Positions 6,439 through 60,349 are shown, counted from the first letter of the stretch. The stretch is 64,000 bases of DNA from Candidatus Magasanikbacteria bacterium CG1_02_32_51 (GCA_001871435.1 MNVC01000019.1:218-64217), one strand, 5' to 3'. Numbers and translations: made by a program. The notes: a model not told the origin generated them from the sequence alone.

Positions 6439-7485
6439 CTATTTCCAATATATTCTATCTGGGTATCTCAAATCTATGTAATTCAAAAAAATATTATTAT
6501 CTATTTTTTCTTTATATAAAGAGTTTAATTTATTTATTTGGGCAGTCACTTCCCTATCAAAACGTGTCTTGATATAAAATCCTTTGTAAGTTTTTATTGT
6601 TAGATCTTGTTTGTTATCTTCAAAGATAAAATATTTTAAAGGAATTTTTTCATTATTATCAAGTTGTTTGAACCAATTTATTAATATAATTACTTCTGCT
6701 TTATCCAAAACATTCTCATTTATATTTACCTCTTGTATATTATTTTTATCATAAATAATGGGATAATTGCCTAAATCTTTTTTTATAGTAGCAATATCTG
6801 GTTCATGCAATTTACCTACTACAATTGTGGTAGTAATACTTTCTCCAGTAATAGTGGTTGTAACTACTTTTTGAGTAATATCTTTCCACTCATAATCACT
6901 TATCTTTCGCATTATTTCTACTATCTTTCCATCTAGATCTACATAGCTATATTCTAAACCATTGTCATAGATAATAGTAGAAATTTTTTCTTGAATAATT
7001 ATAGACAATTTGTTGGGAAAACTTTTTTTGACAATAATTTTTTCAATTGGGTATCTTTCTTTTAAGACGTCTTTTATTTCATTTACATTGGAAAAAACAT
7101 AACTATTTTCTCTTATTAAACCTAATTTTTTATAATTGAGAATACCATTTATTGTTTCCAATAAATCTATTTTTTTTATTCTTTGTAATCCTTCTATTTG
7201 TATATCATTTATATTAAAGAAAGGATGAAAAACAAAGACTGAAAAAATAGTTAGAATGCTTATAATTATAATAAAAAGATTTAAATATATTAGTTTTTTA
7301 CTAGCCTTTTCATGAATAAAAGGGTTCTCTATTTCTCTACCTTGCCAAGCAAAATCGCGTCTAGTTTTTTTGGAGTTAAAAAAATAATTAAAAATTTTTT
7401 TTGTACTTTTTACTTTATTATTGAACTTTCTTTGTAATTTGTGATGGTTTATTATTTTTTTGATTGGCACAGGCTTTTTACACAA
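6439..7485 (-). CDS. ftsQ: cell division protein FtsQ/DivIB-like (POTRA domain); non-ATG (TTG) start as called
   Basis: Basic cytoplasmic N-terminus, a single TM, then a POTRA-like INDIQIEGLQRIKKIDLLETIN segment. There is no Met in the first 100 aa, so an alternative start codon is likely. Confidence 0.5.
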   Translation of the reverse strand: MCKKPVPIKKIINHHKLQRKFNNKVKSTKKIFNYFFNSKKTRRDFAWQGREIENPFIHEKASKKLIYLNLFIIIISILTIFSVFVFHPFFNINDIQIEGLQRIKKIDLLETINGILNYKKLGLIRENSYVFSNVNEIKDVLKERYPIEKIIVKKSFPNKLSIIIQEKISTIIYDNGLEYSYVDLDGKIVEIMRKISDYEWKDITQKVVTTTITGESITTTIVVGKLHEPDIATIKKDLGNYPIIYDKNNIQEVNINENVLDKAEVIILINWFKQLDNNEKIPLKYFIFEDNKQDLTIKTYKGFYIKTRFDREVTAQINKLNSLYKEKIDNNIFLNYIDLRYPDRIYWK

Positions 7486-7786: not shown

Positions 7787-8812
7787 TTAAAAACCACGTT
7801 TTTTGTTTCTGATAGTTTCAATAACCCAAGTAATCCAATACTTTGGTGAAATTACAAAATCTTGACAAGGTAATAAATTTTTTTGAAAACCACCAAAACC
7901 TTTTTTAAAGTGCGTAATACCTTTGAAAGGATGACTAATAGGAGCATCATTTGGTGCTATTCCCCAAAAATTGTAATACTTCATTCCCCTATTTTTGGCT
8001 TCTTGAATAGCTTTCCATTGTAAGAGATAAGAAGTTGGTATTTTTTTATCTTGATTTAATGAAGCACCATGACGATAAGCTGCAGAATTGCCATAAAAAT
8101 AAACAACTGCTGATGAGTCTAATTTGGGATTATTAGATAAATAAGCCTTTAAAACAGATACTTCGTCATCTTTTTGAAAAGCAACAAATTCTTTTTCAAC
8201 ATAAAAATTGGAAAAACGTGTAAAATTATGTTTCTTGGCTGTATAATCATGCAAAACATTGAATTCTTCCAAAGCTTTTTTATCATTAGAAAAAACAATT
8301 TTTACTTTTTCTCTAAGACATCTATTGATTAGATTACGATGATTTTTGTTCATGTTGACTAATATTTCTTCCTCACTTTTTTCTAGATCCAAAAGCCAAG
8401 TTATCTCAGCCAAAACATGAGTAGGAGATTTTCTAAAACCAATGTTTTTGTAAGTATTTCTAGTTTCTTCTGTATCATCTATAAAAGGAGAAACTCTAAT
8501 AAAATTATAATATTCTTTTTTGGCTTTCTCCTCTAAAAAATTTATAAATAATTTTAAAATGTTTTCATAATCTTTACTAATTACAGGTCCATAAGGCGCA
8601 AAAAGAAAATTACCACGTTTGGCGTGTACACTCAAAATCAAACTGCCAGCAATCAATTTATCAGATTCATATATACCTATGAGCCATTGCTTTTCATTTA
8701 TAGATTCATAAAATTCACCATACTTGTAAGACTGTGTCATAAGCACGAATTTTTGTTGTGAAAGAAATTGTTCCCATTCTTCTTTATTTTGTATTTCTTT
8801 TACTTTGTACAT
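7787..8812 (-). CDS. FemAB family peptidoglycan bridge aminoacyltransferase, paralog 2
   Basis: GNAT-like FemAB architecture; FKKGFGG motif near the C-terminus; 341 aa. Confidence 0.65.
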   Translation of the reverse strand: MYKVKEIQNKEEWEQFLSQQKFVLMTQSYKYGEFYESINEKQWLIGIYESDKLIAGSLILSVHAKRGNFLFAPYGPVISKDYENILKLFINFLEEKAKKEYYNFIRVSPFIDDTEETRNTYKNIGFRKSPTHVLAEITWLLDLEKSEEEILVNMNKNHRNLINRCLREKVKIVFSNDKKALEEFNVLHDYTAKKHNFTRFSNFYVEKEFVAFQKDDEVSVLKAYLSNNPKLDSSAVVYFYGNSAAYRHGASLNQDKKIPTSYLLQWKAIQEAKNRGMKYYNFWGIAPNDAPISHPFKGITHFKKGFGGFQKNLLPCQDFVISPKYWITWVIETIRNKKRGF

Positions 8813-8814
8813 AA

Positions 8815-9807
8815 TTATTCTTTAGTACTGTGACCAACTATGGTCCTTTTTCTTAATTTTTGAATTAGCAAAAATATTTTATATTTGAAAGGATTCAAGA
8901 TTATTTCCAAGGGTTTTGGATAACATTCCAATTTGCCATTAAATCCTGCTTTGAACTTGGCTACACCGTCTAGAGGGTGAGATTTTTTCCAAGAATAATT
9001 ATGATGGGAATTTGTATCATTACTTCCCTTCTCTGCTGGTGGAGCCATACCCCAAAAGTCATAAACTTTACAGTCTAACTTTTTGGCTAATTTTATAATT
9101 TCAAATTGATTTAGATAAGGTCCCATGAGATTACGCTGGCTATTGGAAGATGCTCCAAACAAATAATACATAGTTTCATTGTATTTGAACACAATAGCTG
9201 AAGATAAGACATCATCTTCAAAGTAAGTAGTTAACTGATAAACACTATCTAATTTTAATAATTTTTCTATATAATTTTTATCATGACTTTTGATACTGTT
9301 TCTTTCTGTAGTCATTTCATTCAATTTCCAATATTTATTTATATCTTTTTCAATTTTACAAACAACACCCTTTTTTATGGCTAAGTTTATGTTGTATCTA
9401 GTTTTGGAATGCATCTCAGCCAAAATTTCATCTTCAGTTTTTTTTAGATCCAAAAGCCATGTGCATTCTGGTTGTCTATTTTTTACTTCTTTATACATAA
9501 AATATTTTGGCATTGTATAATTCAATCTTTCTACACGCCAAAATACAAAATTATTTATTTTCAAAAATTTACTTATTTCATCTAATAATTCTTCAGAAAA
9601 AGAAACTCTAGGAATATAAATAAATTTAAACCCTAAAATATTAGAGGTTATTACACCTTGAAATTGATTTTTTACATTATCTTTAGAAATAAATTCATAC
9701 CTTATTAATTTTCTTCCTGTATCTTTCAAAAATTCACCATATTCCCACGATTGCAAAAATTCTTCTTTAGTAGTCCATTCTTCTTTTTTAAAAACTTCTT
9801 TTATCAT
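8815..9807 (-). CDS. FemAB family peptidoglycan bridge aminoacyltransferase, paralog 1
   Basis: KFKAGFNGKL motif; similar length and organisation to the downstream paralog. Confidence 0.6.
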   Translation of the reverse strand: MIKEVFKKEEWTTKEEFLQSWEYGEFLKDTGRKLIRYEFISKDNVKNQFQGVITSNILGFKFIYIPRVSFSEELLDEISKFLKINNFVFWRVERLNYTMPKYFMYKEVKNRQPECTWLLDLKKTEDEILAEMHSKTRYNINLAIKKGVVCKIEKDINKYWKLNEMTTERNSIKSHDKNYIEKLLKLDSVYQLTTYFEDDVLSSAIVFKYNETMYYLFGASSNSQRNLMGPYLNQFEIIKLAKKLDCKVYDFWGMAPPAEKGSNDTNSHHNYSWKKSHPLDGVAKFKAGFNGKLECYPKPLEIILNPFKYKIFLLIQKLRKRTIVGHSTKE

Positions 9808-11039
9808 AAATTAACATTTATTAGTTCTGCTATTTTTTTAGCTTGGTTATAAGTAATATTTTTATTTGTTGGCAAATTTACAGTCAGTTTGGCTAATTTT
9901 TCAGCATTTGGACAACTACCATTTATATAACCTGTTTTTGACATATTTATATCCTTGTCTTTTGGTGCAATTACCGAATCATACCAGTTGCCCAAAATGA
10001 TTTTATGTTTTTTGGCCATTTTTATTAGTTCTTCTGGATTTTCAACTAAAATGGTATAGCGTAAAAAAATGTTGTCATCCGATACTGATGGTTTTTGCAT
10101 TTTATTACTATCCAAAAGTTTATCATAAATATGAGCAATCTCTTGACGGTGTTTATTCATTTCGTCCAATTTGTCGAGTTGGTTCAGCAAAATTTTGGCC
10201 AAAGAGTTGGGATATTTGGCTGGATAAAATTTTAGTTTGACACAAGATTTCTCTTTTTTGTATATTATTTTACTTGTTAAACCTATTTTTTGGGCAATAG
10301 CTAAGAAAATTTTACCAAGTACGATATCATACATCATTTTTCCAATATAAAAAACTGGGAAATTAAACAGATTTTGGAGAGTTGTCCTAATGGTTGATAA
10401 AGCTAATTTTTTGTTTAGCAATAATATTTTTTCAGCCAATTTCTCATTGTTAGTAATCAGTGCCCCACCACGAGAAGAAGAGATTATTTTGTCACTGCCA
10501 AAACTAAACATTCCTATATCTCCAAAAGTACCTGTTAATTTATCATTATATTTTGTTCCCAAAGAATGGGCACAATCTTCTATGACTATCAGATTATTTT
10601 CTTTAGCAATTTGCAGTAATTTGTTCAGATTTGCTGCTTTGCCAAAAGTATGTTGGATAATTAAGATTTTTGATTTTGTTGTGATTTTCTTTTTTAAATC
10701 TTCAACTTCCATATTGAAATTGTCATCCACATCTACATAAATTGGTTTTCCTCCTGCCCAATTTATTGCATTACTGACTACTAGACAAGTATAGGCTTGG
10801 ACTAAGACTTCGTCTTCACTTTTTATACCAACAGCTTCTATAGCTTTTTGCAAAGCAGTACGTCCACTATCAAAAGTAATAACAAATTTTGCATTAAAAT
10901 AATTTTGTAACCAGCTTTCTACTTCTAGAATATTTTTACCTTTTCGCAAATAAGGCCACTTCCAAGGTAAAAATAAAAAAGATAAGGAAGTCAAGGCATC
11001 TTTTTTATAAATATTAGGATGAAAACCAGTAAAAATCAT
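9804..11039 (-). CDS. DegT/DnrJ/EryC1/StrS family PLP-dependent aminotransferase
   Basis: FSFGSDKIISSSRGGAL matches the family's lysine-containing FSFHxxK motif. Confidence 0.7.
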   Translation of the reverse strand: MIFTGFHPNIYKKDALTSLSFLFLPWKWPYLRKGKNILEVESWLQNYFNAKFVITFDSGRTALQKAIEAVGIKSEDEVLVQAYTCLVVSNAINWAGGKPIYVDVDDNFNMEVEDLKKKITTKSKILIIQHTFGKAANLNKLLQIAKENNLIVIEDCAHSLGTKYNDKLTGTFGDIGMFSFGSDKIISSSRGGALITNNEKLAEKILLLNKKLALSTIRTTLQNLFNFPVFYIGKMMYDIVLGKIFLAIAQKIGLTSKIIYKKEKSCVKLKFYPAKYPNSLAKILLNQLDKLDEMNKHRQEIAHIYDKLLDSNKMQKPSVSDDNIFLRYTILVENPEELIKMAKKHKIILGNWYDSVIAPKDKDINMSKTGYINGSCPNAEKLAKLTVNLPTNKNITYNQAKKIAELINVNL

Positions 11040-11042
11040 AAA

Positions 11043-12635
11043 TTATTTTTTTAATTCGTATCTTATTATTTCTGGTATTCTATTTTCCAATAATATAACC
11101 GATTTTGTTTTTTTGTGTTCTTTTAGATAAGTTAACAATTCCAAACTATTTGTTTTGATCATTACTTTTGTCTGATATTTAGTACCTGCACCCTTTTTCA
11201 AAGGTTCTACAAAATCTGGGGTTATAATCACTAATTCATCAGCCATAAAGGCAATCTCTCCACCAATTTGTTCGTGAATTTCATTACTAAGTTCTCCAAG
11301 TTCAATAATTCCTCTAGTTATTACAATTTTTTGATATTCATGTGAATAATTAGCCAACATATTTATAGCAACTCTAAATCCATCAGGGTTAGAATTATAA
11401 GTATCGTCTATTATGATAGACTTACCATAATTATAGATTTGTAAAGCATGCTTTGGATTTTCTACTTTTTTGACAGCTTCTCTTATTTCTTCTAAAGAGA
11501 ATCCTAAATAATTAGCTACCAAAAGAGACGGCGCTAGATTCAAAATATTGTATTCACCAAAAAGTTTTGTTTGCAATTCTATATGAATTTCTTCACCGTT
11601 TAAATTTTTTTTGAATTTAAATAAAATACCTTCTTTATTACTTTCTATGCCTTCAATTAAACAAGTTGGATTGAATTCTTCTTCAAAACCAAAAGTCATA
11701 GTTTTAGCTTTTATTTCATTCAGGAATTCTCGACAATATTTATTATCAGAATTAGTTATAGCTAGACCATTTTTTGGTAAGTATTTTAATAATTCATATT
11801 TGGCTTTTTGGATATTTTCTATTGAACCAAAGAGACTCAAATGTTGTGGACTAATTGCTGTTAGAATACCTATTTTAGGATTTACAATATTACAATGTTC
11901 AAGTAAATCTCCCACTCTATAAGCTCCCATTTCTACCACAAAAAAATCAATATCTTTGAAATTAGTTTGTAAAATAAATTTACTAATACCAAAATCAGTA
12001 TTAACATTTTTTGGAGTTTTGACAACTTTAAATTTGTAAGAGAGCAAATCTGTTAGTATTTCTTTGGTGCTAGTCTTACCATAACTCCCTGTTATGCCGA
12101 TAACAGTTAAATTTATGTATTTAGCTAATTTTTTCTTTGCTAATTTAGCAGTATAATTTTTTATAAATTGTGTAATAACATTGAAAAAATTGATTATAAT
12201 AGTAATTAAAATAAATCTTAAGAAACTAAAAACAACTACAGTCCTAGGATCTTGAGTTTTTAAGAAAAAAATAGATTCTACAAAAATTACTACAAATAAA
12301 ATTAAAATAATTTTTAAGCTAAAGACGGGTCTTTTGATTGGTTTTTTCAAAATAATTTTCAGAATTAAGTAAACAAAATCCAATATAAAAATTAATAAAA
12401 TTACCCATTTTAATACTGCTAATTTTTGATCCCAAAAAAAGATTACCAAAATAAGAGGTATTTTGTATAAAAAATCATAACGAAAGAGTATTCTCTTTCC
12501 TTCTGTGGTATGTAACAAATCTAGAAATCTATCCCAACGGTATTCCTTGAGTTGCCAAAAATAAGCAAATTGAAGATATTCATTGCTCATACTAACAAAC
12601 CAGAAGAAAACTATTGCAAAGTCTATAATTTGCAT
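11043..12635 (-). CDS. murF: UDP-MurNAc-tripeptide D-Ala-D-Ala ligase MurF with an N-terminal polytopic membrane extension of about 170 aa
   Basis: GITGSYGKTSTKE P-loop and the MurF signature IIDDTYNSNPDGF (DDSYNANP). The first 170 aa or so are hydrophobic TM helices, which is unusual for MurF. Confidence 0.7.
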   Translation of the reverse strand: MQIIDFAIVFFWFVSMSNEYLQFAYFWQLKEYRWDRFLDLLHTTEGKRILFRYDFLYKIPLILVIFFWDQKLAVLKWVILLIFILDFVYLILKIILKKPIKRPVFSLKIILILFVVIFVESIFFLKTQDPRTVVVFSFLRFILITIIINFFNVITQFIKNYTAKLAKKKLAKYINLTVIGITGSYGKTSTKEILTDLLSYKFKVVKTPKNVNTDFGISKFILQTNFKDIDFFVVEMGAYRVGDLLEHCNIVNPKIGILTAISPQHLSLFGSIENIQKAKYELLKYLPKNGLAITNSDNKYCREFLNEIKAKTMTFGFEEEFNPTCLIEGIESNKEGILFKFKKNLNGEEIHIELQTKLFGEYNILNLAPSLLVANYLGFSLEEIREAVKKVENPKHALQIYNYGKSIIIDDTYNSNPDGFRVAINMLANYSHEYQKIVITRGIIELGELSNEIHEQIGGEIAFMADELVIITPDFVEPLKKGAGTKYQTKVMIKTNSLELLTYLKEHKKTKSVILLENRIPEIIRYELKK

Positions 12636-12646: not shown

Positions 12647-13399
12647 TTATTTTTTAGAAAAAGAAATTATTAAATTTATCAATTCTTGTTTTTTCCAAAG
12701 GTACAGACCATGTGTACCTCCTTTTATTATTTCCAATTTTGCTCCAACAATATTTTTGGTTATTTTTTCACCATCTTTTATAGATACGTAGTCATCTTTG
12801 TCTCCCCAAACCACCAAAGTTGGGATTTTTATTTTTGGTAAAAATTCACTTACATCTTGCTTGGTAATTTTTAGAAAAATATCCTTCTTAATGCCTGTAG
12901 CTCTATTGTAGTCACCTGTCCCAGCTAACTTATAAATAACTTTACGCATAAAGTCTGCCAACTTGTCTAATACTGGTAAACTAAATACTATTTTACCACT
13001 TTTGGCAATGAATTTGAAGATTTTGTTTTTCAAACTCTCTGGTCGACGATACACAGCAGCTCCACTCAAAATAAGTTTGTCTACTATATTTTGATTATGA
13101 CCTAGTAAATAAGTAGCAATTTGACCACCAAAGCTATGTCCGAGTAAAATAGTTTGTTGATTAAATTTTTTCAAAGCAATTAGTCTATTAGTTACAAACT
13201 GTGAGTACTCCTCCACACCCCAGATTGAGCTAGGACAAGGCTCTTTGCCAAAACAAGGTAATTCTATTACTTCTACTTCAAAATCGTTTAGAGCTAAGGA
13301 AACAAAATCAGACCAAGTTTCTTTTGAGCCACTCCAACCGGGAATGATAATTAGTTTTGTTTTTTGAGGAGTTATCTCCATAATTTTGAAATTTTTCAA
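12647..13399 (-). CDS. alpha/beta hydrolase fold protein
   Basis: GHSFGG nucleophile elbow; 250 aa. Confidence 0.55.
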   Translation of the reverse strand: MKNFKIMEITPQKTKLIIIPGWSGSKETWSDFVSLALNDFEVEVIELPCFGKEPCPSSIWGVEEYSQFVTNRLIALKKFNQQTILLGHSFGGQIATYLLGHNQNIVDKLILSGAAVYRRPESLKNKIFKFIAKSGKIVFSLPVLDKLADFMRKVIYKLAGTGDYNRATGIKKDIFLKITKQDVSEFLPKIKIPTLVVWGDKDDYVSIKDGEKITKNIVGAKLEIIKGGTHGLYLWKKQELINLIISFSKK

Positions 13400-13425: not shown

Positions 13426-14691
13426 TTACTTTGCTTTACTAATAAATTCCTTGCCTACAAACTTCTGTAAAACTTTTGGAATTTTGATACTGCCATCAGC
13501 TTGTTGATTATTTTCTATTATGGCAATCGGGAAACGACTAAGCACTACAGCCGTGCCATTTAGGGTATGCACAAATTCGTTTTTACCTTCATCATTTCTA
13601 TATTTGATATTTAGTCTTCTTGCTTGATAGTCTGTACAATTACTGGTACTCGTAATCTCACCATAACCACCTTTAGCTTTAGCTTCAGCTTTCATAGTCA
13701 TCCAAGCTTCTAAGTCGTATTTACGAAAAGCTGGACCACCTAATTCCCCTGTTGGAGTATCAATTACGCGATAAGGAATTTCTAGGCCGTCACAAATTTC
13801 TTTTTCAATACTTAATAATTCTTGATGTAATTTTTCACTGTCTTCTGGTTTACAAAAAATAAACATTTCTAATTTGGTAAATTGATGAACACGATAAAGA
13901 CCTTTACTAGTGCGACCATAGGCCCCAGCTTCAGTACGGAAACAATGTGACATTGCTGTATATTTCTTTGGTCCATTATTCAAATCCAAAATTTCATCAG
14001 CATGAAACCCTAGCATAGTAATTTCAGCAGTCCCAACAAGACTCAAATCTTCATCAGCAAGATTATAAACTTGTTTTTCTGTCCCACGAGGATTGAAGCC
14101 AGCTCCAAGCAAGATTTCATGTTTAGCAAGATCAGGAGTTTCAATAAGATTATAACCATGTTTTTCCAAAATCTCCATACCATAATTTAGTAAGGCTTGA
14201 TTTAATTTTACCATATCATTTTTGACAAAATAAAATTTACTTCCAGAAACTTTGGCTCCACGTTCAAAGTCTACCAAATCAAGGTTTATCATCAATTCTT
14301 CATGATCTTTGGCTTCAAAATCAAAATTTGGGATAGCTCCCCTTTCTTCAATCACAACAAAATCATCTTCACCACCAATAGGACTTTTTTTGTGAGTCAT
14401 ATTTGGTACCTGAAGCATTAAGTTTAAATAACTTTCTTCAATAGTTTTCAATTCTTCTTCTAGAAATTTTATTTTCTCTCCCACTTCACGCATTTGTTTG
14501 ATTTCATCTTCACTTGGTTTACCTTTGGAGCTACTATTTCTTTTGGAACGGAGTTCTTCTGTTTCTTGCATTTTCTCTCTTTTTTGTTTATCAAAATCAA
14601 GTAGCTTATCAATATCTACTTTTACTTTTCTATTTTGACAGTTTTTTTTGACTAATTCGCTATTGTCGCGAATAAATTTTATGTCTAGCAT
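13426..14691 (-). CDS. serS: seryl-tRNA synthetase
   Basis: N-terminal coiled-coil arm and class II motif 2 (FRTEAGAYGRTSKGLYRVHQF). Confidence 0.9.
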   Translation of the reverse strand: MLDIKFIRDNSELVKKNCQNRKVKVDIDKLLDFDKQKREKMQETEELRSKRNSSSKGKPSEDEIKQMREVGEKIKFLEEELKTIEESYLNLMLQVPNMTHKKSPIGGEDDFVVIEERGAIPNFDFEAKDHEELMINLDLVDFERGAKVSGSKFYFVKNDMVKLNQALLNYGMEILEKHGYNLIETPDLAKHEILLGAGFNPRGTEKQVYNLADEDLSLVGTAEITMLGFHADEILDLNNGPKKYTAMSHCFRTEAGAYGRTSKGLYRVHQFTKLEMFIFCKPEDSEKLHQELLSIEKEICDGLEIPYRVIDTPTGELGGPAFRKYDLEAWMTMKAEAKAKGGYGEITSTSNCTDYQARRLNIKYRNDEGKNEFVHTLNGTAVVLSRFPIAIIENNQQADGSIKIPKVLQKFVGKEFISKAK

Positions 14692-14846: not shown

Positions 14847-15926
14847 TCAGGATGACATTTCATTGATAACTTCTCTTATTTCTGGTAATAAATTTATTAA
14901 AAATTCTTTGTTTTTTTCTATAAAATCATAATTTGTAAGATCATCCAAATTAACAAATTTAGTTTCCATTACCTCTGTATCATTTATTTCACCTACACTT
15001 TCTATATATTTACAAACAAAAGGTATAAGATAAACTTGATAGTTAAAATTTTTACCAGTACTCGCCACTACCTGTATTTCGTTTAGTTGTTTTATAATTT
15101 CTACTTTACAAGCTGTTTCTTCTAGAATTTCACGTTTTACATTTTCTTCTAATTTTTCACCATATTCCATACTGCCACCTGGCAATTCCCATTTACCATG
15201 AAATCTAGGATTATGAGGATCATTGCGTTTGGAGATAAGCATCTTACCTTCTTTGATAATTATTCCTACTGGTACGACAATATGTTTGTTAGAAAAATGG
15301 TCAGCCAAAAAATATTTTATTTTATTTAGAGCTATACCTCTGTGAGAAGTTGCATTTTTTTCTACAGTAGTTAATTCAGAATAAGTTTTATTCAAATCTG
15401 GTAAATAAAATATTGGATCATAACCAAAACCATTAGCGATCCTTTCTTCTTTTAAAACTTTTCCTTTTCTTTCTCCATAAGCTAAAAACAGTTCTTCTTT
15501 ATCTGGATTGTACAAAGCTGATACAGCTTTGAAACTGGCAGTTAATTTTTCTTCAGGAATGTCTTTTACTTTTTCTAGCAAAACTTTTCTTCTGTCTTCG
15601 GCATCTTTACCAATACGAGCACTAATCACTCCAGGCCAACCATCAAGAGTATCAACAAAAATCCCTCCGTCGTCTGCCAGAGACATTAGACCTGTTTTGT
15701 CAGCATAATATTTGGCTTTTAGAATGGCATTACCTTCAATAGTTTTTTCACTTTCTTCTGGTTCTTCTGGAATATTTTTCAAATCTTTTAGAGACAAAAA
15801 ATCAAAATTCAAATCATGTAAAAATTTTTTTATTTCTGTAAATTTTCCTTCATTGGTAGTAGCAATTAGAATTTGCCTTTTTTCTTCTAACATAATGGAA
15901 TTTATATATTTGGCGTAGTTTGACAA
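14847..15926 (-). CDS. fusion of non-canonical purine NTP pyrophosphatase (Ham1/RdgB) and a NUDIX hydrolase
   Basis: N-terminal ILIATTNEGKFTEIKKF and a Ham1-like body. The C-terminus carries a Nudix box (GKWELPGGSMEYGEKLEENVKREILEETA). Confidence 0.7.
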   Translation of the reverse strand: MSNYAKYINSIMLEEKRQILIATTNEGKFTEIKKFLHDLNFDFLSLKDLKNIPEEPEESEKTIEGNAILKAKYYADKTGLMSLADDGGIFVDTLDGWPGVISARIGKDAEDRRKVLLEKVKDIPEEKLTASFKAVSALYNPDKEELFLAYGERKGKVLKEERIANGFGYDPIFYLPDLNKTYSELTTVEKNATSHRGIALNKIKYFLADHFSNKHIVVPVGIIIKEGKMLISKRNDPHNPRFHGKWELPGGSMEYGEKLEENVKREILEETACKVEIIKQLNEIQVVASTGKNFNYQVYLIPFVCKYIESVGEINDTEVMETKFVNLDDLTNYDFIEKNKEFLINLLPEIREVINEMSS

Positions 15927-31760: not shown

Positions 31761-33329
31761 TTATAAATCATTTCCAGTATATGACAAATTAAAACTTTTA
31801 TTAATCAAAGGAAAATCAGGCACCACATTATGAACCCCTGCATGTCCAAGTAAAGACCAATTTATAAAGGAAGGATCACGTGGTGCGACTCTCTCAATAA
31901 TACCATCAGCATCTGTAGTAACAAAATAAAGTATCTCTCCACGCCAACCCTCGACTACACTTATAGCAACAGCATTTTTTTTGAACGGAGAAATATTTTT
32001 TGCACAAATAAGTCCATCGGGTAATATTTTTAGAGCGTCTTTAATAATTTTTATTGATGCATAGACTTCTTTGATGCGAACATAAAATCTAGCATATGCA
32101 TCCCCACTTTGTTCGATTGCAATTTTATCAAGTTCCAATTCATCATAAGCCGCATAAGGGAAATCAACTCGCGCGTCATCAGTGATACCAACTGCTTTTG
32201 CGACAATCCCTGTTGCACTATGTTCTATGATAGTCTCTAGTGACAATTCACCAGTACCTTTGAGACGATTTAGGAGTGATGAACTATTTTCAGCAATATG
32301 AATAATTTCATTAAAATCTTTTAGTATAGAAGTAAGCTCTTCGGATAATTTTTCCTTTTCTCTATTTTCTATGTCCTTGGAGATTCCACCACAAACATTG
32401 ATTCCACGCAAGAACCTGTTTCCTGTCAACCGCTCATTGATTTGCATAATCATTTCTCGTAACCGTGCGCTGTGTGCACCACCAAAATTAAATCCAGTAT
32501 CAAGCATCATGGCACCAATGTCGCCAAAATGATTGGCTAATCGTTCAAGTTCCGCATATATAACACGCAAATAAGTAGCTCGTTTCGGTGGTATGGTGTC
32601 TGATAGTTGTTCTAGAGCCTGACAAAATGCCAATGAATGACTAAATGAACTGTCTCCAGAGATTTTTTCAGAAAGACGGATTTTTTCATTAAGTGCCAAA
32701 GTTTCAAATAATTTTTCACTGCCTTTATGGGTAAATCCAAGACGAGATTCAAGTAAAACTATTTCTTCACCCGCAACGCTAAATCGAAAATGACCAGGTT
32801 CAATAATGCCGGCATGGATTGGACCAACTGGAATTTCATATATTCCTTCACCATCAACTTTTTGAAATTGATATGTTCCGCTTGCTTCTTGTGGTCTGTT
32901 ATTCCAATCAAAATCCTTTCGGAGTGGATAAATATCTGTTGGCCAATTCTCATGAAGAATAATCCCTCGTGAATCCTGATGACCAACTGGATCTAGTCCA
33001 AAAAATGTTTTGATTTTTCTTTCATAATTCCAGGCATTATGAATAAGAGGCGAAAGTGATGGAAATTGTTCAGTATTTTTTAATTCAATAAATGGGATAA
33101 TAAATCCATGTTCGTGAGGTATCCCAAAGACATACCAGATCTTAAAACATCCATTTTCTTTTCTCTCATCAGTTGCCGTAATGAATTTAAGTTGAAGATT
33201 TTTATTATTTCGTAAGTCAGAAGCGAATGCAAGTATATTGGAAACAGAAACTTCAAAAATAACAACATTTTCATAAATAGTTAATTTTTCCTTTCCAGAA
33301 AAATATTGTTTTATTTTTTCTATGTTCAT
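31761..33329 (-). CDS. fused NuoC-NuoD-like / group 4 [NiFe]-hydrogenase large-subunit homolog lacking all Ni-Fe-ligating cysteines
   Basis: PVGPIHAGIIEPGHFRF and LGFTHKGSEKLFE match large-subunit motifs. The N-terminal L1 position reads KISGDSSFSHSLAF (canonical RxCGxCxxxH) and the C-terminal reads RDPSFINWS (canonical DPCxxCxxH). Confidence 0.7.
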   Translation of the reverse strand: MNIEKIKQYFSGKEKLTIYENVVIFEVSVSNILAFASDLRNNKNLQLKFITATDERKENGCFKIWYVFGIPHEHGFIIPFIELKNTEQFPSLSPLIHNAWNYERKIKTFFGLDPVGHQDSRGIILHENWPTDIYPLRKDFDWNNRPQEASGTYQFQKVDGEGIYEIPVGPIHAGIIEPGHFRFSVAGEEIVLLESRLGFTHKGSEKLFETLALNEKIRLSEKISGDSSFSHSLAFCQALEQLSDTIPPKRATYLRVIYAELERLANHFGDIGAMMLDTGFNFGGAHSARLREMIMQINERLTGNRFLRGINVCGGISKDIENREKEKLSEELTSILKDFNEIIHIAENSSSLLNRLKGTGELSLETIIEHSATGIVAKAVGITDDARVDFPYAAYDELELDKIAIEQSGDAYARFYVRIKEVYASIKIIKDALKILPDGLICAKNISPFKKNAVAISVVEGWRGEILYFVTTDADGIIERVAPRDPSFINWSLLGHAGVHNVVPDFPLINKSFNLSYTGNDL

Positions 33330-33330
33330 A

Positions 33331-34776
33331 TTACTTATAGTATAAAGTGGCGTTATGGATTAATACCTGCAAAAATGGTGGCTGATAAAAACTCAAAACT
33401 AACACCAGAATAAGAAGTATTAGAGGAGGAAGAATGAGCCAAATACTTTCTTTTTCTTGTTTCATTTCAGACGGTTTTTCTCCAAAAACCATAGCAGAAG
33501 CGTGTTTAAAAAATCCAATAAAAACAATAGCAGTAAGCAAAATTGCCGTAATGCCAATGACTGGATGTGTAGTAATTCCGGCAGAAAAAGTAAACAATTT
33601 AGTAAGAAATATCCCAAAAGGCGGTGCGCCGGTAATAGCAAAAAATCCAATCAAAAATAATATACTGGTTATTGGTAATGCCTTGAGTGCACCTTTGACA
33701 TTAGCAATTTTTGCTGAATGATATTTGAGTAAAAAATTTCCTGACAAGAAAAAGAGAGCAGATTTAGTTAAAGAATGATAAATAGTATGAAGGATAGCTG
33801 CCATGACACCTAGCCCGCCAAACCCAAATCCAAGCGCAATAATTCCCATGTTTTCAATACTTGAATAGGCAAGCAAACGCTTGTAACTTTTTTGACTAAG
33901 AATAATGAGAGCGGAGATTAGAATTGAAAATGTACCAAAAACAATAAGCAAAGTCTGAGAAAAAGATTGACCAATCACAGAGTCAGTAATAATTTTAAAT
34001 TTTAAGACAATAACAAGTGCGACATTAAGTAATACTCCAGACAAAAGTGCGCTGATTGGTGCTGGGGCTTTGCTATGGGCATCAGGTAACCAGGTATGCA
34101 TCGGAGCAAGTCCAACTTTCGTTCCATAACCAATCAACACAAAAACAAAAGCTATTTTGGCAAGTAAGGGATCCATATGAATGGCATTTGTGGTGAGCAT
34201 ATGCCAACTAATAAACCCATTTCCAAGTGAGGGATCAATAGAAGTAAAATACAAAAGTGTACCAAAAAATCCCAACAGTAAACCGATAGAATTGATAATC
34301 AAGTATTTCCAAGCTGCCTCCATGGCTGAAGATTTGTTATAAAAACTAATAAGAAAAGCAGTGGAAAGTGTGGTTGCTTCAATAGCAATCCATGCAAAAA
34401 TTGGACTACTTGATGAAATAGCTAGAAACATTGCCCCTAAGAACAGATTAAGTAAAGTAAAATACTGTTTGACGCGGGTAAATCCGATAATATTATTAGC
34501 GGTTTCTTTTCTCAAATAAGGAATGGAATAAGCGACTGTGGCAAACCCGACACAGGAAATAATCAGCATCAATAAAGCACCAAGTGCATCAACGGAAAAA
34601 AATGCAAATGGAGAATAGTCTCCCGAGAGAGCAACCTTGAAAGCAACCACAAATGACTCTATAAGTGCAACTGCTGAGGCACTAATTGAAACACATTCAA
34701 CAGTAATACGATGTTTTGCTAGAATTGCGATCAAAGATGCGATCACTAATGATGAAATGATAATAATAAATTCCAT
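33331..34776 (-). CDS. NuoM/NuoN/MrpD-like proton-pumping antiporter subunit
   Basis: About 14 TM helices in a complex I antiporter-like pattern. Confidence 0.65.
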   Translation of the reverse strand: MEFIIIISSLVIASLIAILAKHRITVECVSISASAVALIESFVVAFKVALSGDYSPFAFFSVDALGALLMLIISCVGFATVAYSIPYLRKETANNIIGFTRVKQYFTLLNLFLGAMFLAISSSSPIFAWIAIEATTLSTAFLISFYNKSSAMEAAWKYLIINSIGLLLGFFGTLLYFTSIDPSLGNGFISWHMLTTNAIHMDPLLAKIAFVFVLIGYGTKVGLAPMHTWLPDAHSKAPAPISALLSGVLLNVALVIVLKFKIITDSVIGQSFSQTLLIVFGTFSILISALIILSQKSYKRLLAYSSIENMGIIALGFGFGGLGVMAAILHTIYHSLTKSALFFLSGNFLLKYHSAKIANVKGALKALPITSILFLIGFFAITGAPPFGIFLTKLFTFSAGITTHPVIGITAILLTAIVFIGFFKHASAMVFGEKPSEMKQEKESIWLILPPLILLILVLVLSFYQPPFLQVLIHNATLYYK

Positions 34777-34780
34777 AGTA

Positions 34781-35428
34781 TTAGTCTTTTAAATGTTTCA
34801 TGGTGCTGGTATCAAGCGATCCAAAATGTCGATAAATCATGGAAATAAAGACAGTAGAAATCACCAACCAAATAAAAATATCAAATATAATGCCAAATTG
34901 AAGCATAGGTGATTGTTCGAGGCCGGCAAAAATTGCAAAGGCAACGATACTATTTTCTAGAGAAAGAATTCCAACAGCTTGTGAAAGAGCGTCTTTACGG
35001 TTGATGACCAAGAAAAGAGAAATAAAAATTGCTGAAAGCGCAAGTGATAATAAGGCTTGATGAGCCGGAATAATATTCGTGAGAGATAAGAATTTTTGAG
35101 AGTGCGCAATGGCGGTAAATCCAGCAAGAACGATGAGTGTGAGTGGCAAATTCAAATAAGTACTTACTGAAAATGTTAATTTATGTTTTTGAATCAACCT
35201 GAAAAAAAATACTGACGCCAAAATAACTTTGATAACCAGTGTCACTAAAACTACAAAAAGAAGAAAAAAGCTATTTGTTTCTAAAAAAGAAGTAAACAAT
35301 ATCAATGTGATAATCAAAGATTGAATACTATACGCAATAACAGCTCCAAAATTTTTCTTTGCGAGATGCAAATAAAAAATAGATAAAAATAATATCCCAA
35401 GTAGAAACTGTAAGAAAAATATGTTCAT
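34781..35428 (-). CDS. HyfE-like small membrane subunit (NuoK-like repeats)
   Basis: 215 aa, multi-TM; GILSLENSIVAFAIFAGLE resembles NuoK/HyfE. Confidence 0.4.
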   Translation of the reverse strand: MNIFFLQFLLGILFLSIFYLHLAKKNFGAVIAYSIQSLIITLILFTSFLETNSFFLLFVVLVTLVIKVILASVFFFRLIQKHKLTFSVSTYLNLPLTLIVLAGFTAIAHSQKFLSLTNIIPAHQALLSLALSAIFISLFLVINRKDALSQAVGILSLENSIVAFAIFAGLEQSPMLQFGIIFDIFIWLVISTVFISMIYRHFGSLDTSTMKHLKD

Positions 35429-36390
35429 AGTATTTGCATTTGAATAAGACCGATTGCTAGTGCGCTCAAAATAAGAGAAGTAATTAATAAGTCAGGCAAT
35501 CTAAAAAATCTAAACTTGGCCATAGTAGATTCAATAATTCCGACTATAGCGCACAAAATAAATATTTTTATAAGAAGAATAATAATACCTATAACAATCG
35601 CTTGTGTATCAACACTATGGGCGATACCATAAGGGAAAAACAAATTTGCTCCTAAGGCTGCAAAAATAAAAAATTTATTGGCCGCCGCCCATTCCATTAA
35701 CGCCAATCTTTTACCTGAATATTCCAAAATCATCGCTTCATGAATCATAGTTAATTCTAAATGAGTCGCTGGATTATCAAAAGGGAATCTTCCTGTTTCA
35801 GCAAGTAACACAATAAAAAATCCAATAAAGGCTAATATCGTAGACAAAAAGAATTGAGTACTTAGTAACATTCCAGCGTTTGAAATTACAAAAAGATTAG
35901 TGGTGCCAATACTGAGCGCAGTCGTAAAAAGAGCTAGAATAAGACCTCCTTCAGCCAGCGCTGAAATAGTCATTTCTCGACTAGAGCCAAATCCACCAAA
36001 CGCGCTTCCTGTGTCCATGCCCGCAAGTGCTAGAAAAAATGTACCCAATGCAAGCGTATAGACAACGACTAAGAGATCACCAGTTAGTGTATTTTTTAAA
36101 AAAGAAGCAAAAAGTGGAATACTTGCTCCAATAACAATAGTGGTAGCAAAAATAATAAATGGCGCAAAACGAAAGACCCATGACGCGTCAGTACTTATTA
36201 CTTCATCTTTATGCAAAAGTTTCCATATGTCTTTGTATGGTTGAAAAATACTTGCTCCAACACGATTTTGAAGTTTCGCTTTTATTTTTTTTATGATGCC
36301 CATACACAATGGCGATAGTGCTGGCACACAGATGAGTTGTAATATCCAAATAAAAATCATCATATAGTTATTACGATAAAAATAGAGCAA
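35425..36390 (-). CDS. NuoH/HycD-like membrane subunit
   Basis: KAKLQNRVGASIFQPYKDIWKLLHKDE matches the NuoH N-terminal signature. Confidence 0.7.
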   Translation of the reverse strand: MLYFYRNNYMMIFIWILQLICVPALSPLCMGIIKKIKAKLQNRVGASIFQPYKDIWKLLHKDEVISTDASWVFRFAPFIIFATTIVIGASIPLFASFLKNTLTGDLLVVVYTLALGTFFLALAGMDTGSAFGGFGSSREMTISALAEGGLILALFTTALSIGTTNLFVISNAGMLLSTQFFLSTILAFIGFFIVLLAETGRFPFDNPATHLELTMIHEAMILEYSGKRLALMEWAAANKFFIFAALGANLFFPYGIAHSVDTQAIVIGIIILLIKIFILCAIVGIIESTMAKFRFFRLPDLLITSLILSALAIGLIQMQIL

Positions 36391-38416
36391 TTGCTACCGC
36401 GATTAAGATATAGAAAACATACATATTGATACTCCCACTTTGGATCGCTTTGGCACGCACTGATAGTGTGGTAATAAATTTATTGAGTGGTAGATAAAAA
36501 TATAATCGATAAATATCTCGTGTACGCAGTGTCACAGTTCTAGATTTTGGAAAATATCTTATTTTGGAATCACGATATTCAATTTCATTTTGAATACTTG
36601 GCCGAAGGATACCCGCAAAAATAAGAATAATTGAACGAGCAAACCCAGTAGCAGTAATTTCCATACGCGGTGTAAGATTAGTGCCACAGTCCCATGTCGC
36701 ACCGATTTTAGTTTTTTGATTTCTATTGATAACAAATTTGACGAGTAGTACGACAATGAACAGTGCAAGAATAAGGAAAACAATCAGTGCTAGAGCAGAG
36801 ACCGATCCAAAATTATTTGGTGCAATAAAATTAATTTTGGAAGATAAAATAGGTGGCAATGAAATATTGCGAAATACAGTGAGATGGGTACCAATATTTA
36901 TAAATAAAGATCCTAAATATCCTGAAAATATACCAAACAAAAGACAGCATAATGCTAGAGCTCCCATTCCTATAAGTTGTGAAAGTGAGGATTCTTTTGC
37001 ATGAGCTACTTCTGTGCTTCTTGGACGAGCCAAAAATGTCGCACCAAAAGCTTTTACAAAACAAGCTAAAGCAAGTCCACCCGTTATGGCCAGAGCGCCG
37101 GTTGCTAATACAAAAGTAGATTTTACAAGTATATTGACAGATGTCATTCCTTGTAAAAGTGTTTGAAAAGTCAACCACTCACTAAAAAAACCATTGAATG
37201 GTGGCAAGGCTGATATTGCCATAGAACCAACAAGAAAAAAGAATGCTGTTTGAGGCATATATTTAATCAATCCACCATATGCTTCCATGTTGCGTGTATG
37301 TGTTTGGTTGATAACTGATCCGGCACTCAAAAACAACAAGGACTTAAAGGTTGCATGATTGAGGGTGTGAAAAAGAGCAGCCCCAAGACCAAAAAGCGCA
37401 AGTAGTGTGTTACCAAGTGATATAAAAACAAGTGCACTACCAAACCCCAATAAAATAATTCCGATATTTTCAATACTATGATAGGCCAAAAGTTTTTTTA
37501 TATCGTGTTCAGTAAGCGCGTAGAGAACTCCAAGTAAAGCTGATAATGAACCAATAATCAGAATAGTAATTCCCCACCATAAAGGGATTGGTTGGAGTAT
37601 ATCCAAAAAAAGTCTAATCATCATATAAATTCCAGTTTTTATCATTACTCCAGACATAAGCGCTGAGACATGCGAAGGAGCTGCTGGATGAGCTACTGGA
37701 AGCCAAATATGAAATGGAATAATACCAGCTTTAGTTCCAAATCCAATAAGGGCTAAGATAAAGATAGTATTTTTGATAAATACAGGAATAGCAACGGCTT
37801 GGGCTTGGATTGATTCAAAATCAAAAGAGTTTGTAAATTTATACATGAGCAAAAATGCTAAGATTATAAAGGCGGTACCCACATGTGTCATAACGAGGTA
37901 GAGAAATCCTGCCTTGGTATTATTCACATCATTATGATCATACACAACGAGAAAATATGATGCGATAGACATTATTTCCCATGCAATCAAAAAGAAAAGT
38001 CCGTTTGAAGCTGTTACTACCATGAGCATACCTATGATGAATAAATGATAAAAAAATCCAAGTGCACTAATGCTATATTTTTTATAATAATGTTTGATAT
38101 ATCCAATTCCGTATAATGAACAAAAAAGAGTAATAAGAGAAATCACAAAAATAAAAAAGGCAGACAGCTGATCAATATGGAACGAAAAAGAAAGAAGCGG
38201 AAAAACTGATGAATAAGCCACAAAAGATAAATTACCAGTAAAAAAAGCACTTATCGAAAAAAATATTCCCCACAAAGAACCGATGATTGCAAAGAAACTC
38301 TGCCATCCATTTGCCAATTCGTCTTTTTTTCTAAAAAACAAAGATCCAATTGCTCCCAAAGAATACAGCAAAAGTAATAAAAAAAATCCTGACTCAGTTG
38401 TTAAAAGGTTTACCAT
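36371..38416 (-). CDS. NuoL/HyfB-like antiporter subunit (long)
   Basis: 681 aa with about 16-18 TM helices; MrpA/NuoL-type. Confidence 0.65.
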   Translation of the reverse strand: MVNLLTTESGFFLLLLLYSLGAIGSLFFRKKDELANGWQSFFAIIGSLWGIFFSISAFFTGNLSFVAYSSVFPLLSFSFHIDQLSAFFIFVISLITLFCSLYGIGYIKHYYKKYSISALGFFYHLFIIGMLMVVTASNGLFFLIAWEIMSIASYFLVVYDHNDVNNTKAGFLYLVMTHVGTAFIILAFLLMYKFTNSFDFESIQAQAVAIPVFIKNTIFILALIGFGTKAGIIPFHIWLPVAHPAAPSHVSALMSGVMIKTGIYMMIRLFLDILQPIPLWWGITILIIGSLSALLGVLYALTEHDIKKLLAYHSIENIGIILLGFGSALVFISLGNTLLALFGLGAALFHTLNHATFKSLLFLSAGSVINQTHTRNMEAYGGLIKYMPQTAFFFLVGSMAISALPPFNGFFSEWLTFQTLLQGMTSVNILVKSTFVLATGALAITGGLALACFVKAFGATFLARPRSTEVAHAKESSLSQLIGMGALALCCLLFGIFSGYLGSLFINIGTHLTVFRNISLPPILSSKINFIAPNNFGSVSALALIVFLILALFIVVLLVKFVINRNQKTKIGATWDCGTNLTPRMEITATGFARSIILIFAGILRPSIQNEIEYRDSKIRYFPKSRTVTLRTRDIYRLYFYLPLNKFITTLSVRAKAIQSGSINMYVFYILIAVAIALFLS

Positions 38417-38417
38417 A

Positions 38418-58897: not shown

Positions 58898-60268
58898 TTA
58901 TGAACTTTTAACTTTCAAACTGTCCCTGACAATTTGTCTATCATCCCAAAAAATCATTTTTCCTCCAGTTATACACATAGCTTGTTCACTTCCCTTTCCT
59001 GTTAGCAAAATCAAATCCCCTACTTTGGCTATTTCTACAGCTTTACCAATAGCTTCTTTTCTATCTAATATTTCAAACAAATTTTCATTCAATTTTTTAC
59101 CAGCCTTTTGAGCAAATTCAGAAACTTCTTTGATAATAGACAATGGATTTTCATCATAAGGATCTTCGTCAGTTACAATGAAAATATCAGCCTTTTGGGC
59201 AATCATCTCTCCTATTACTTTACGACGAGATTTATCACGGCCACCACCAGTAGAACCACAGACATGAATTATTCTTCCTGTTGGTTTTAACAAATCAACA
59301 ACTTTGTATAATTTAGTAAGAGCCACTGGTTCAAAGGCATAATCAACTATTACATCAAAGCCTTTGCCTTTTGCTTCTAAAATAAATTCATTTCTTCCTG
59401 GAACATTTTTGAAAACACTAACAGTTTTTTCAATTACTTCCCAGAAAATATTTAATTCACGAGCTACTGTAATAGCACCAACAATATTATAAATATTATG
59501 TTCACCATACATTGGTGCCATAAATTTGTGATTTTCAATTTCAAAATGTAATCCATCTTTATCCACTCGAACATCACTAAACAAAAATTTGTCTGTTATA
59601 TTTTCTAAATAATCTTTTTCTTGTTTACTACCAAACACTATTTTTTTTGCAAAATTGAATTGCAAAAATTCTGGAGAATATTGGCTATTACAATTGACGA
59701 TTGCTGTTTTTCCAGCGAAGACTGGTTCGCCTAGGACGGAGTTCATTGATAATTTATTACCTAACTTTTTAACACTACACTCGGAAACGTATTCAAAAAT
59801 ATCCAATTTAGCTTTTTTATAATTTTCGAAACTACCGTGAGATTCAATATGCTCAGGATACAAATTAGTCAAAACTATCATATCATAATTGATGAAGCTA
59901 TGACGGTACTGTAAACGACCCTCAGAAGTAGTCTCAACAATTGCTACATCACATTTCTTATCTACCATTTCACGTAAATATTTTTGAATTTGCATACGAC
60001 CAAGCATGGTCATCTTCTGATCATTTAATTTTTCTTCTCCTGCAACATAAAAATCAATAGTGGATAATGAACCTACACGCAAACCAGCACTTTCCAAAAG
60101 CTGTCTCAACAGATATACAGTTGTAGATTTTCCACTAGTACCAGTAATTCCAATAACCAATAATTCTTGGGAAGGATTCTTGTATACAAAGGCTCCAAAC
60201 CAAGCAAAAAATAAATGTCTAAGATTTAAAAACTTTTTTGGAAATATTTTTTTTATTATTTTTTTCAT
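58898..60268 (-). CDS. Mur ligase family protein, MurE-like
   Basis: IGITGTSGKSTTV P-loop and VIVDYAFEP (DYAHTP-like); the C-terminal TDEDPYDENP sits where MurE has DNPR. N-terminal hydrophobic segment. Confidence 0.6.
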   Translation of the reverse strand: MKKIIKKIFPKKFLNLRHLFFAWFGAFVYKNPSQELLVIGITGTSGKSTTVYLLRQLLESAGLRVGSLSTIDFYVAGEEKLNDQKMTMLGRMQIQKYLREMVDKKCDVAIVETTSEGRLQYRHSFINYDMIVLTNLYPEHIESHGSFENYKKAKLDIFEYVSECSVKKLGNKLSMNSVLGEPVFAGKTAIVNCNSQYSPEFLQFNFAKKIVFGSKQEKDYLENITDKFLFSDVRVDKDGLHFEIENHKFMAPMYGEHNIYNIVGAITVARELNIFWEVIEKTVSVFKNVPGRNEFILEAKGKGFDVIVDYAFEPVALTKLYKVVDLLKPTGRIIHVCGSTGGGRDKSRRKVIGEMIAQKADIFIVTDEDPYDENPLSIIKEVSEFAQKAGKKLNENLFEILDRKEAIGKAVEIAKVGDLILLTGKGSEQAMCITGGKMIFWDDRQIVRDSLKVKSS

Positions 60269-60348: not shown

Positions 60349-60349
60349 A

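Follow-up and report, generated by a model that had tools for sequence, protein, structure and literature searches.

Mur ligases have long been pursued as antibiotic targets and are described in textbooks as soluble enzymes of the cytoplasm. Canonical MurF (EC 6.3.2.10; E. coli, 1GG4; A. baumannii, 4QF5; T. maritima, 3ZL8) is the UDP-MurNAc-tripeptide:D-Ala-D-Ala ligase, which acts last among the cytoplasmic enzymes of cell-wall synthesis, and comprises a soluble uridine-binding domain 1 of approximately 85-115 residues, a central ATPase domain and a C-terminal domain. Domain 1 is missing from the PgsB/CapB poly-gamma-glutamate synthetase, a Mur-ligase-family amide ligase that is held in a membrane complex by an N-terminal hydrophobic segment; this enzyme is anchored only once, makes a polymer of glutamate, lacks the C-terminal motif of MurF and works with PgsC/A as partners. 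MurT, of the MurT/GatD lipid II amidotransferase, likewise has no uridine-binding N-terminal domain and acts at the membrane on lipid-linked precursors (PMC6085368). Here we describe a 64-kb stretch of DNA (hereafter the window) from Candidatus Magasanikbacteria CG1_02_32_51 (MNVC01000019.1:218-64217), a genome of the Candidate Phyla Radiation (CPR, Patescibacteria) with a G+C content of approximately 28-30%, which encodes a MurF-type ligase whose domain 1 is replaced by a predicted five-helix membrane domain. The protein, termed TM-MurF (transmembrane MurF), has 530 residues and is encoded on the minus strand (11043..12635) by a single open reading frame (ORF) that joins the membrane domain to the Mur ligase central and C-terminal domains; its best database match is a protein of this organism with 100% identity.

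The ligase part of TM-MurF shares the central and C-terminal domains of the canonical enzyme. Mur_ligase_M (PF08245) matches residues 181-373 with an E-value of 3e-39, and Mur_ligase_C (PF02875) matches residues 406-505 with 27.0 bits, slightly below the cut-off of 28.4, which the orthologues pass. The ATP-binding P-loop GITGSYGKTSTK lies at residues 180-191 (12063..12098, minus strand), where G180, T182, G183, S184, K187 and K191 are invariant, and the MurF-type C-terminal-domain motif DDTYNSNP, a form of the canonical DDxYNxNP, lies at residues 410-417 (11385..11408, minus strand), where N414, N416 and P417 are conserved; the latter motif aligns with DDTYNASP of the Thermotoga maritima MurF. 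The GSYGKT core of the P-loop is invariant or nearly so, as are E235 and H265, which are the Mg-binding Glu and His, and K279, the lysine at the position that is carbamylated in other Mur ligases. Of the 23 NCBIfam matches, the murF model TIGR01143 is the best, with 248.4 bits. The presence and conservation of the P-loop, the Mg-binding pair, the lysine and DDTYNSNP, together with the best PDB sequence and fold matches, which are to MurF structures, indicate that the catalytic core is, as far as sequence and predicted fold can tell, a MurF core. TM-MurF also retains the active-site His that is absent from MurT and carries the MurF motifs; unlike TM-MurF, MurT is a soluble or peripheral protein that amidates D-Glu together with its glutaminase partner, GatD. 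TM-MurF does not match the NCBIfam MurT model, and no glutaminase gene is present in the examined loci.

A comparison with known MurFs reveals a major difference at the N-terminus. The TIGR01143 alignment begins only at model position 62 of 418, the MurFs in the PDB (Thermotoga, Acinetobacter, E. coli, Pseudomonas and S. pneumoniae) start to align no earlier than query residue 161-178, and a Foldseek search with the AlphaFold2 model ranks MurF structures first over approximately 380 columns, in the ligase part only. Thus, the canonical soluble UDP-binding domain 1 is absent and is replaced, rather than preceded, by the membrane domain. A preliminary description made from the window had correctly named a MurF ligase with its P-loop and DDTYNSNP motif, but had set approximately 170 residues of transmembrane helices in front of a complete enzyme.

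The membrane domain occupies residues 1-165 (12141..12635, minus strand). The hydropathy profile of this N-terminus of approximately 165 residues shows four strong peaks and one weaker peak, and the AlphaFold2 model, built from a 117-sequence alignment, has a predicted local distance difference test score (pLDDT) of 92.2 and a predicted template modelling score (pTM) of 0.85. Helices are predicted at residues 3-29, 58-67, 72-95, 107-127 and 130-171, the last of which passes unbroken from the membrane into the ligase, and a model of the membrane domain alone agrees with the full-length one. In 30 sequences, the mean number of lysine plus arginine residues per loop, from the N-terminus onward, is 0, 6.5, 0.1, 3.4, 0.7 and 3.4. 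Together, these alternating counts and the predicted helices fit a topology in which five helices cross the membrane, the N-terminus faces outward and the ligase lies inside, so that the transmembrane region proposed in the preliminary description stands, with five predicted helices instead of the six proposed there.

Conserved residues of the membrane domain are clustered in two segments, both of which are placed by the predicted topology on the cytoplasmic face. The first, WQLKEYRWDR (residues 27-36; 12528..12557, minus strand), follows helix 1; within it, W27, Q28, L29, K30, Y32, R33, D35 and R36 are invariant or at least 90% conserved among 117 sequences, and relatives outside CPR have Q-L-x-x-Y at the aligned position. 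The second, the basic RRP loop KKPIKRPVFSLK (residues 97-108; 12312..12347, minus strand), precedes helix 4, with P103 invariant and K108 at least 90% conserved; the non-CPR consensus is KKPLVYTxRxKR. A plain hidden Markov model is too weak to bridge the divergence between the CPR and non-CPR membrane domains, but an hhalign comparison aligns them over 159 columns with a probability of 96.5% and an E-value of 1e-9, with Q-L-x-x-Y and [KR][KR]P in register, which indicates by profile similarity that the two groups of domains are homologous. The domain has no Pfam model, no solved fold and no description in the literature searched. A shortened MurF of 457 residues in a marine Patescibacteria locus (L054, 9818-11191) keeps Q-x-E-E-Y and the upstream hydrolase gene described below and has lost most of the hydrophobic segments; its membrane domain may be degenerate or represent an intermediate state.

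In an AT-rich genome such as this one, where a G+C content of 28-30% favours Ile, Phe, Leu and Lys codons, a hydrophobic N-terminus could in principle be compositional noise, or a separate membrane-protein gene could have been wrongly fused to murF. This explanation is ruled out for practical purposes. The frame is unbroken by any stop codon; 120 homologues span at least 96% of the query, with the P-loop near residue 180 and a full-length identity of 44-87%, and the conservation extends to the GC-richer Poribacteria and Chloroflexota. Additionally, particular residues of the N-terminus are invariant, the single-chain AlphaFold2 model is confident, and almost all matches to a profile of the membrane domain are proteins of 500-570 residues, which shows that the domain is specific to the MurF fusion. 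The fusion is therefore genuine, as the preliminary description had supposed in treating the protein as membrane-integral, and an upstream ORF mis-joined to murF, which that description had itself raised as an objection, finds no support.

The distribution of TM-MurF was surveyed by a genome scan with one genome per species, which yielded at least 585 relatives. For the best 80 of these loci (numbered with the prefix L), ORFs were called within 10 kb on either side of the match and searched with the window proteins and with proteins of the division and cell wall (dcw) cluster. The architecture is found in CPR lineages, Clostridia/Tissierellia, Poribacteria and Chloroflexota. The CPR loci carry the labels Magasanikbacteria, Staskawiczbacteria, Yanofskybacteria, Nealsonbacteria, Woesebacteria, Peribacteria and others. 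Outside CPR, the carriers, with a hydrophobic N-terminus of approximately 180 residues, are Clostridia, Bacilli-like and Erysipelotrichaceae bins, the isolate Sporosalibacterium faouarense, Poribacteria and Chloroflexota, and versions of 540-555 residues annotated as MurF are present in the cultured genera Gottschalkia, Caloranaerobacter, Caldisalinibacter, Thermohalobacter, Proteiniborus, Anaerosalibacter, Tepidimicrobium and others. Bins tagged as 'uncultured Gammaproteobacteria', 'Muribaculaceae' or 'Bacteroides' (L008, L010, L083, L045, L050 and others) show CPR- or Clostridia-type synteny, and one cluster is tagged Bathyarchaeia; these taxonomic tags are probably unreliable.

The gene order around TM-MurF differs between these groups. 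In Poribacteria it is MraW-FtsI-MurE-hydrolase-TM-MurF-Ddl-MraY-MurD-MurG-MurC, which puts TM-MurF where murF belongs in a dcw cluster, and the MurE encoded there is canonical, with its N-terminal domain present (PF01225 match). In the complete genome of Gottschalkia acidurici 9a (CP003326) and in other Clostridia/Tissierellia, the trio hydrolase-TM-MurF-Ddl is set among glycolysis and housekeeping genes, outside the dcw cluster, and in Chloroflexota both MraY and Ddl lie 3' of TM-MurF. Ddl is the next gene after TM-MurF in nearly all non-CPR loci. In CPR the order is (serS)-hydrolase-TM-MurF-DegT-FemAB-(FtsQ), with FtsQ retained 3' of femAB in many loci. Two loci (L048 and L083) have MurC-hydrolase-TM-MurF-DegT-FemAB-MraY-MurG, where DegT and FemAB stand between murF and mraY. 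The TM-MurF gene of the window itself is neighboured by degT, femAB and ftsQ, and the dcw, ddl and mraY context is that of its orthologues.

A DegT-like enzyme and FemAB transferases are thus conservatively linked to the ligase in approximately 30 CPR species-level genomes, in line with the preliminary description; three CPR loci (L025, L026 and L042) have FemAB without DegT, and some have extra genes between degT and femAB, whose translations, read by eye, look heterogeneous and include no consistent member. No Ddl was found in approximately 35 CPR loci (10 kb on either side), nor in the 64 kb of the window, nor in two murE loci. DegT and FemAB are a CPR-specific addition where Ddl sits elsewhere. 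The suggestion that the membrane anchor is accounted for by DegT and FemAB does not hold, as the same TM-MurF occurs without them in Clostridia, Poribacteria and Chloroflexota, flanked by the hydrolase and Ddl; the membrane form is therefore not tied to these two genes.

A near-constant neighbour that sets TM-MurF apart from canonical MurF is the gene for a cytoplasmic alpha/beta-fold serine hydrolase (12647..13399, minus strand; Pfam Abhydrolase_1/Hydrolase_4). An orthologue of this gene lies directly upstream of TM-MurF, frequently overlapping it, in nearly all of the best 80 loci, across several phyla. The protein has a GHSFGG nucleophile elbow, and the triad S89, D202 and H230 is conserved in 75-76 of the 76 orthologues. 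Only generic esterase and haloperoxidase relatives are found in the PDB, and the subfamily is without a Pfam model, a solved relative or a paper in the literature searched. In Sporosalibacterium (L049, 12443-13195), a second alpha/beta hydrolase gene is located 3' of Ddl, which gives the order hydrolase-TM-MurF-Ddl-hydrolase.

The other late Mur ligase of the genome is encoded at a separate locus in the window (58898..60268, minus strand). This MurE-like protein scores 290 bits with TIGR01085, above the cut-off of 257.3, but the model aligns only from its position 74, and no PF01225 domain is present in 120 homologues of 417-551 residues (nearly all 417-472). Both late Mur ligases, TM-MurF and the MurE-like protein, are therefore without the UDP-binding domain. 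The hydrophobic start that had been ascribed to the MurE-like protein is not borne out: the N-terminus, MKKIIKKIFPKKF..., is a short basic, amphipathic stretch and not a membrane helix.

The enzymes encoded 3' of TM-MurF in CPR resemble known families without falling within any characterised group. DegT/DnrJ/EryC1 sugar aminotransferases (perosamine synthetase 3BN1, PseC, LegC and PglE) share with the DegT-like enzyme (411 residues; 9804..11039, minus strand) the large domain of pyridoxal phosphate (PLP) fold-type I and the catalytic Lys and Asp. PF01041 (DegT_DnrJ_EryC1) is matched with an E-value of 4e-66 and 224 bits against a cut-off of 19.8, and the PLP lysine K184, which aligns with that of perosamine synthetase, is conserved in 28 of 28 sequences. 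However, the enzyme reaches only 160-163 bits with the nucleotide-sugar 4-aminotransferase equivalogs of the PseC/LegC/WecE type, against 420, and falls under every NCBIfam equivalog cut-off. It further differs from the sugar aminotransferases in a hydrophobic insertion of approximately 40 residues (about residues 205-280), which in all CPR orthologues takes the place of the segment that normally follows the PLP lysine, and in having no dehydratase or oxidoreductase partner nearby: neither a keto-sugar-forming enzyme nor a 4,6-dehydratase is found among the annotated window ORFs or, in those related loci that have Pfam tables, among the genes called there.

The closest described relatives of the two FemAB paralogues are FemX of Weissella viridescens and the MurM/MurN and BppA1/A2 pairs. 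Two tandem paralogues are found, as here, in two-residue bridge systems. FemAB 1 (330 residues; 8815..9807, minus strand) and FemAB 2 (341 residues; 7787..8812, minus strand) are 28% identical and match PF02388 with E-values of 2e-25 and 9e-27 (89.8 and 94.4 bits against a cut-off of 24). Both share the FemAB fold of approximately 335 residues, are FemX-like in length, without a coiled-coil insertion, and have the FK catalytic motif, which reads FKAGF at residue 285 in FemAB 1 and FKKGF at residue 302 in FemAB 2; in the latter, F302-K303-x-G-F-G is invariant in 29 of 29 sequences. FemAB 2 aligns with Weissella FemX over residues 6-289. Scores with the FemX models are only approximately 29-60 bits; for the FemX equivalog NF047883 (UDP-MurNAc-pentapeptide-lysine N6-alanyltransferase) they are 59.8 and 40.2 bits, far below the cut-off of 500. 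FemAB 2 is the copy that is conserved across CPR (approximately 30 loci). Orthologues of FemAB 1 3' of degT are present only in loci L001-L006, with one weak upstream match in L027, and FemAB 1 is a lineage-restricted extra copy of some Magasanikbacteria. The FemAB genes here are translationally coupled to a DegT-like PLP enzyme, which is not known from any characterised Fem system.

The CPR genes for DegT and FemAB probably serve to branch or modify the cell-wall precursor, and the most economical reading of the FemAB genes would be a branched stem peptide, with one added residue in most CPR and two in the present organism. The cell walls of CPR are chemically uncharacterised, and the order murF-degT-femAB-(mraY/ftsQ) predicts for them a stem peptide that is branched or otherwise modified. 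For the aminosugar-modified precursor that the preliminary description had raised as a possibility, no keto-sugar-forming enzyme is encoded in the cluster or by the annotated ORFs of the window. The linkage of serS, described below, to the FemAB loci is suggestive but is a correlation only.

In light of these results, we favour, with some reserve, a reading in which TM-MurF is the housekeeping D-Ala-D-Ala-adding MurF of the organism in a membrane-embedded form, with the hydrolase as its partner. This reading builds on the observed architecture, conservation, synteny and intact catalytic motifs, from which we infer the substrate, the function of the partner and the identity of the branch; the housekeeping role in particular is suggested by the Poribacteria orthologues, which stand at the place of murF in the dcw cluster, and by the adjacency of Ddl and MraY elsewhere. 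The five-helix domain, in place of domain 1, would keep the ATP-dependent ligase core on the cytoplasmic side of the membrane. Binding of the sugar-diphosphate end of N-acetylmuramic acid (MurNAc)-tripeptide has probably passed to WQLKEYRxDR and the basic RRP/KKP loop, and the pentapeptide product would be made beside MraY. The upstream Ser-Asp-His hydrolase would work with TM-MurF as an obligate partner, possibly in editing or accessory hydrolysis. In CPR, the DegT-like enzyme and the FemX-like, aminoacyl-tRNA-dependent transferase (two here) most likely modify the nucleotide- or lipid-linked precursor by a branch of one or two residues on the position-3 amine. Several points weigh against this reading. 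The gene context covers 10 kb on either side, so Magasanikbacteria or Clostridia may have a second, canonical MurF elsewhere in the genome. With TIGR01143 the protein stays below the trusted cut-off of 288.6 bits, a shortfall due to the missing N-terminal part, and the DegT-like gene has no accompanying keto-sugar-forming enzyme among the annotated ORFs. Finally, in MurT the loss of the uridine-binding domain accompanies substrates that are lipid-linked and not UDP-linked (PMC6085368).

The parallel with MurT favours the main rival reading, a different order of events in which TM-MurF adds D-Ala-D-Ala to lipid I/II after MraY has transferred phospho-MurNAc-tripeptide (or a shorter peptide) to undecaprenyl phosphate; the membrane domain would bind the undecaprenyl-diphosphate anchor, and the MurE of Magasanikbacteria without domain 1 might work likewise. 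MurT, the only characterised Mur-ligase homologue that acts on lipid I/II, uses no soluble UDP precursor, and lipid II contains no uridine (PMC6085368). The uridine-binding domain is missing from both TM-MurF and the MurE-like protein, in the latter case throughout the 120 homologues; the conserved basic loop on the cytoplasmic face would suit a diphosphate, and Poribacteria, Chloroflexota and some CPR have MraY next to the gene. Nevertheless, we consider such an activity unlikely, as the Poribacteria with TM-MurF retain a canonical MurE, so that UDP-MurNAc-tripeptide is made there, and the MurE-like protein has no membrane segment. Additionally, FemX-like enzymes without the coiled-coil, as in Weissella, act on the UDP-linked pentapeptide. 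That the last stem-peptide additions as such follow transfer to the lipid carrier, with TM-MurF ligating D-Ala-D-Ala onto undecaprenyl-diphosphate-MurNAc-tripeptide and the Magasanikbacteria MurE perhaps also acting at this stage, appears to us marginally more doubtful still. If true, a lipid-linked D-Ala-D-Ala step would change the textbook order of peptidoglycan synthesis for CPR, many Clostridia, Poribacteria and Chloroflexota, and the partnered serine hydrolase would be a new component of the pathway.

It is rather improbable that TM-MurF is instead a specialised paralogue, which together with the hydrolase would ligate another dipeptide or amino acid to a membrane-associated acceptor in recycling, resistance-type remodelling or a secondary polymer. 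The score under the TIGR01143 cut-off and the position of the Clostridia trio away from the dcw cluster would be consistent with such a role, and a second murF may lie beyond the 10 kb viewed on each side. In Poribacteria, however, TM-MurF fills the murF slot and no other murF lies between murE and mraY; Ddl adjoins the gene almost everywhere outside CPR, and ddl-murF adjacency is the normal arrangement in Firmicutes. The MurF-specific motif and the catalytic residues are intact, and the databases annotate TM-MurF as the MurF (K01929) of these genomes. A further proposal, which concerns CPR only and which we consider very improbable, is that the DegT-like enzyme and FemAB replace Ddl, such that the C-terminal residues of the stem would arise by a PLP- and aminoacyl-tRNA-dependent route in place of ATP-grasp D-Ala-D-Ala synthesis. 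DegT and FemAB do hold the position 3' of TM-MurF that is taken by Ddl in nearly all non-CPR loci, Ddl is missing from the CPR regions searched, and serS is linked upstream. However, regions of approximately 20 kb say little about genomes of 0.6-1.2 Mb, in which ddl is to be expected; FemAB enzymes use amines as acceptors for L-amino acids or glycine, and the DegT family consists of sugar aminotransferases. Moreover, the three loci mentioned above keep FemAB without DegT, and the MurF C-terminal domain looks alike in CPR and non-CPR members.

The proteins themselves are already entered in public databases, where they are labelled simply as MurF (K01929) or 'Mur ligase family protein'; what is new here is the membrane-embedded architecture and the pairing with the hydrolase. 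No description of a membrane-embedded MurF, of its membrane domain or of the hydrolase pairing was found in full-text literature searches, and a survey of natural Mur fusions does not mention the architecture (PMC10214165). An integral membrane form of a Mur ligase in several phyla, cultured Clostridia/Tissierellia included, can be expected to surprise peptidoglycan specialists.

In the window, the TM-MurF gene is part of a run of genes that is encoded entirely on the minus strand, from serS to ftsQ. The run begins with serS, which encodes seryl-tRNA synthetase (13426..14691, minus strand; Pfam Seryl_tRNA_N and tRNA-synt_2b), followed by the hydrolase, TM-MurF, DegT-like and FemAB genes, and the gene for an FtsQ-like POTRA division protein (6439..7485, minus strand; POTRA_1) lies at the 3' side. 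The gaps are 26 nt between serS and the hydrolase gene, 11 nt between the hydrolase gene and murF, and 3 nt between murF and degT; degT and femAB 1 overlap by 4 nt, the two femAB genes are separated by 2 nt, and approximately 300 nt precede ftsQ. No convincing internal terminator was found in consensus scans of the run. This tight spacing, together with the lack of a convincing internal terminator, makes it plausible that the genes from serS through femAB 2 form one transcription unit. The four ORFs for TM-MurF, the DegT-like enzyme and the two FemAB paralogues are real, at the coordinates and on the strand reported in the preliminary description, and the position of serS upstream in the same orientation, also noted there, recurs in most CPR loci. 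The operon proposed in that description omitted the hydrolase gene between serS and murF, which has to be added to its members. Upstream of serS, the window encodes a fusion of Ham1 (a non-canonical nucleoside triphosphate pyrophosphatase) and NUDIX (14847-15926), and the same fusion is present in related loci.

Several features near the MurE-like gene deserve mention. A translin-family protein (PF01997) is encoded directly 5' of murE in the window (60593-61171) and in the two related Magasanikbacteria loci examined (L087, 9306-9884; L088, 9259-9828); the translin family is known mainly from eukaryotes and archaea. A family-2 glycosyltransferase gene lies 3' of the MurE-like gene in the window and in L087. 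The 324-nt intergenic region between the translin-like and MurE-like genes (60269-60592, minus strand) has a core of approximately 47% G+C, compared with approximately 30% otherwise, and a predicted RNA fold of -92.5 kcal/mol (z = -5.4 versus shuffles). Rfam gives no match to the region, either at the gathering threshold or at E<=1, and blastn finds nothing similar to it in the fetched loci. The region could represent a structured RNA of unclassified type or a leader of murE. Elsewhere in the window, a 468-residue ORF (50787-52193) has no Pfam or NCBIfam match, and a Pfam-less ORF of similar size occupies the same position beside a LigB/Memo-like gene in L087. A module that resembles complex I or a group-4 [NiFe] hydrogenase (31761-38960) comprises a fusion of the 30-kDa and 49-kDa subunits, two antiporter-like subunits and subunits that resemble NuoH and NuoB, and is adjoined by an F-type ATP synthase. 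To our knowledge, such a module would be unexpected in a CPR genome; its G+C fraction is 0.35-0.36, compared with approximately 0.30 elsewhere, and it could have been acquired horizontally.

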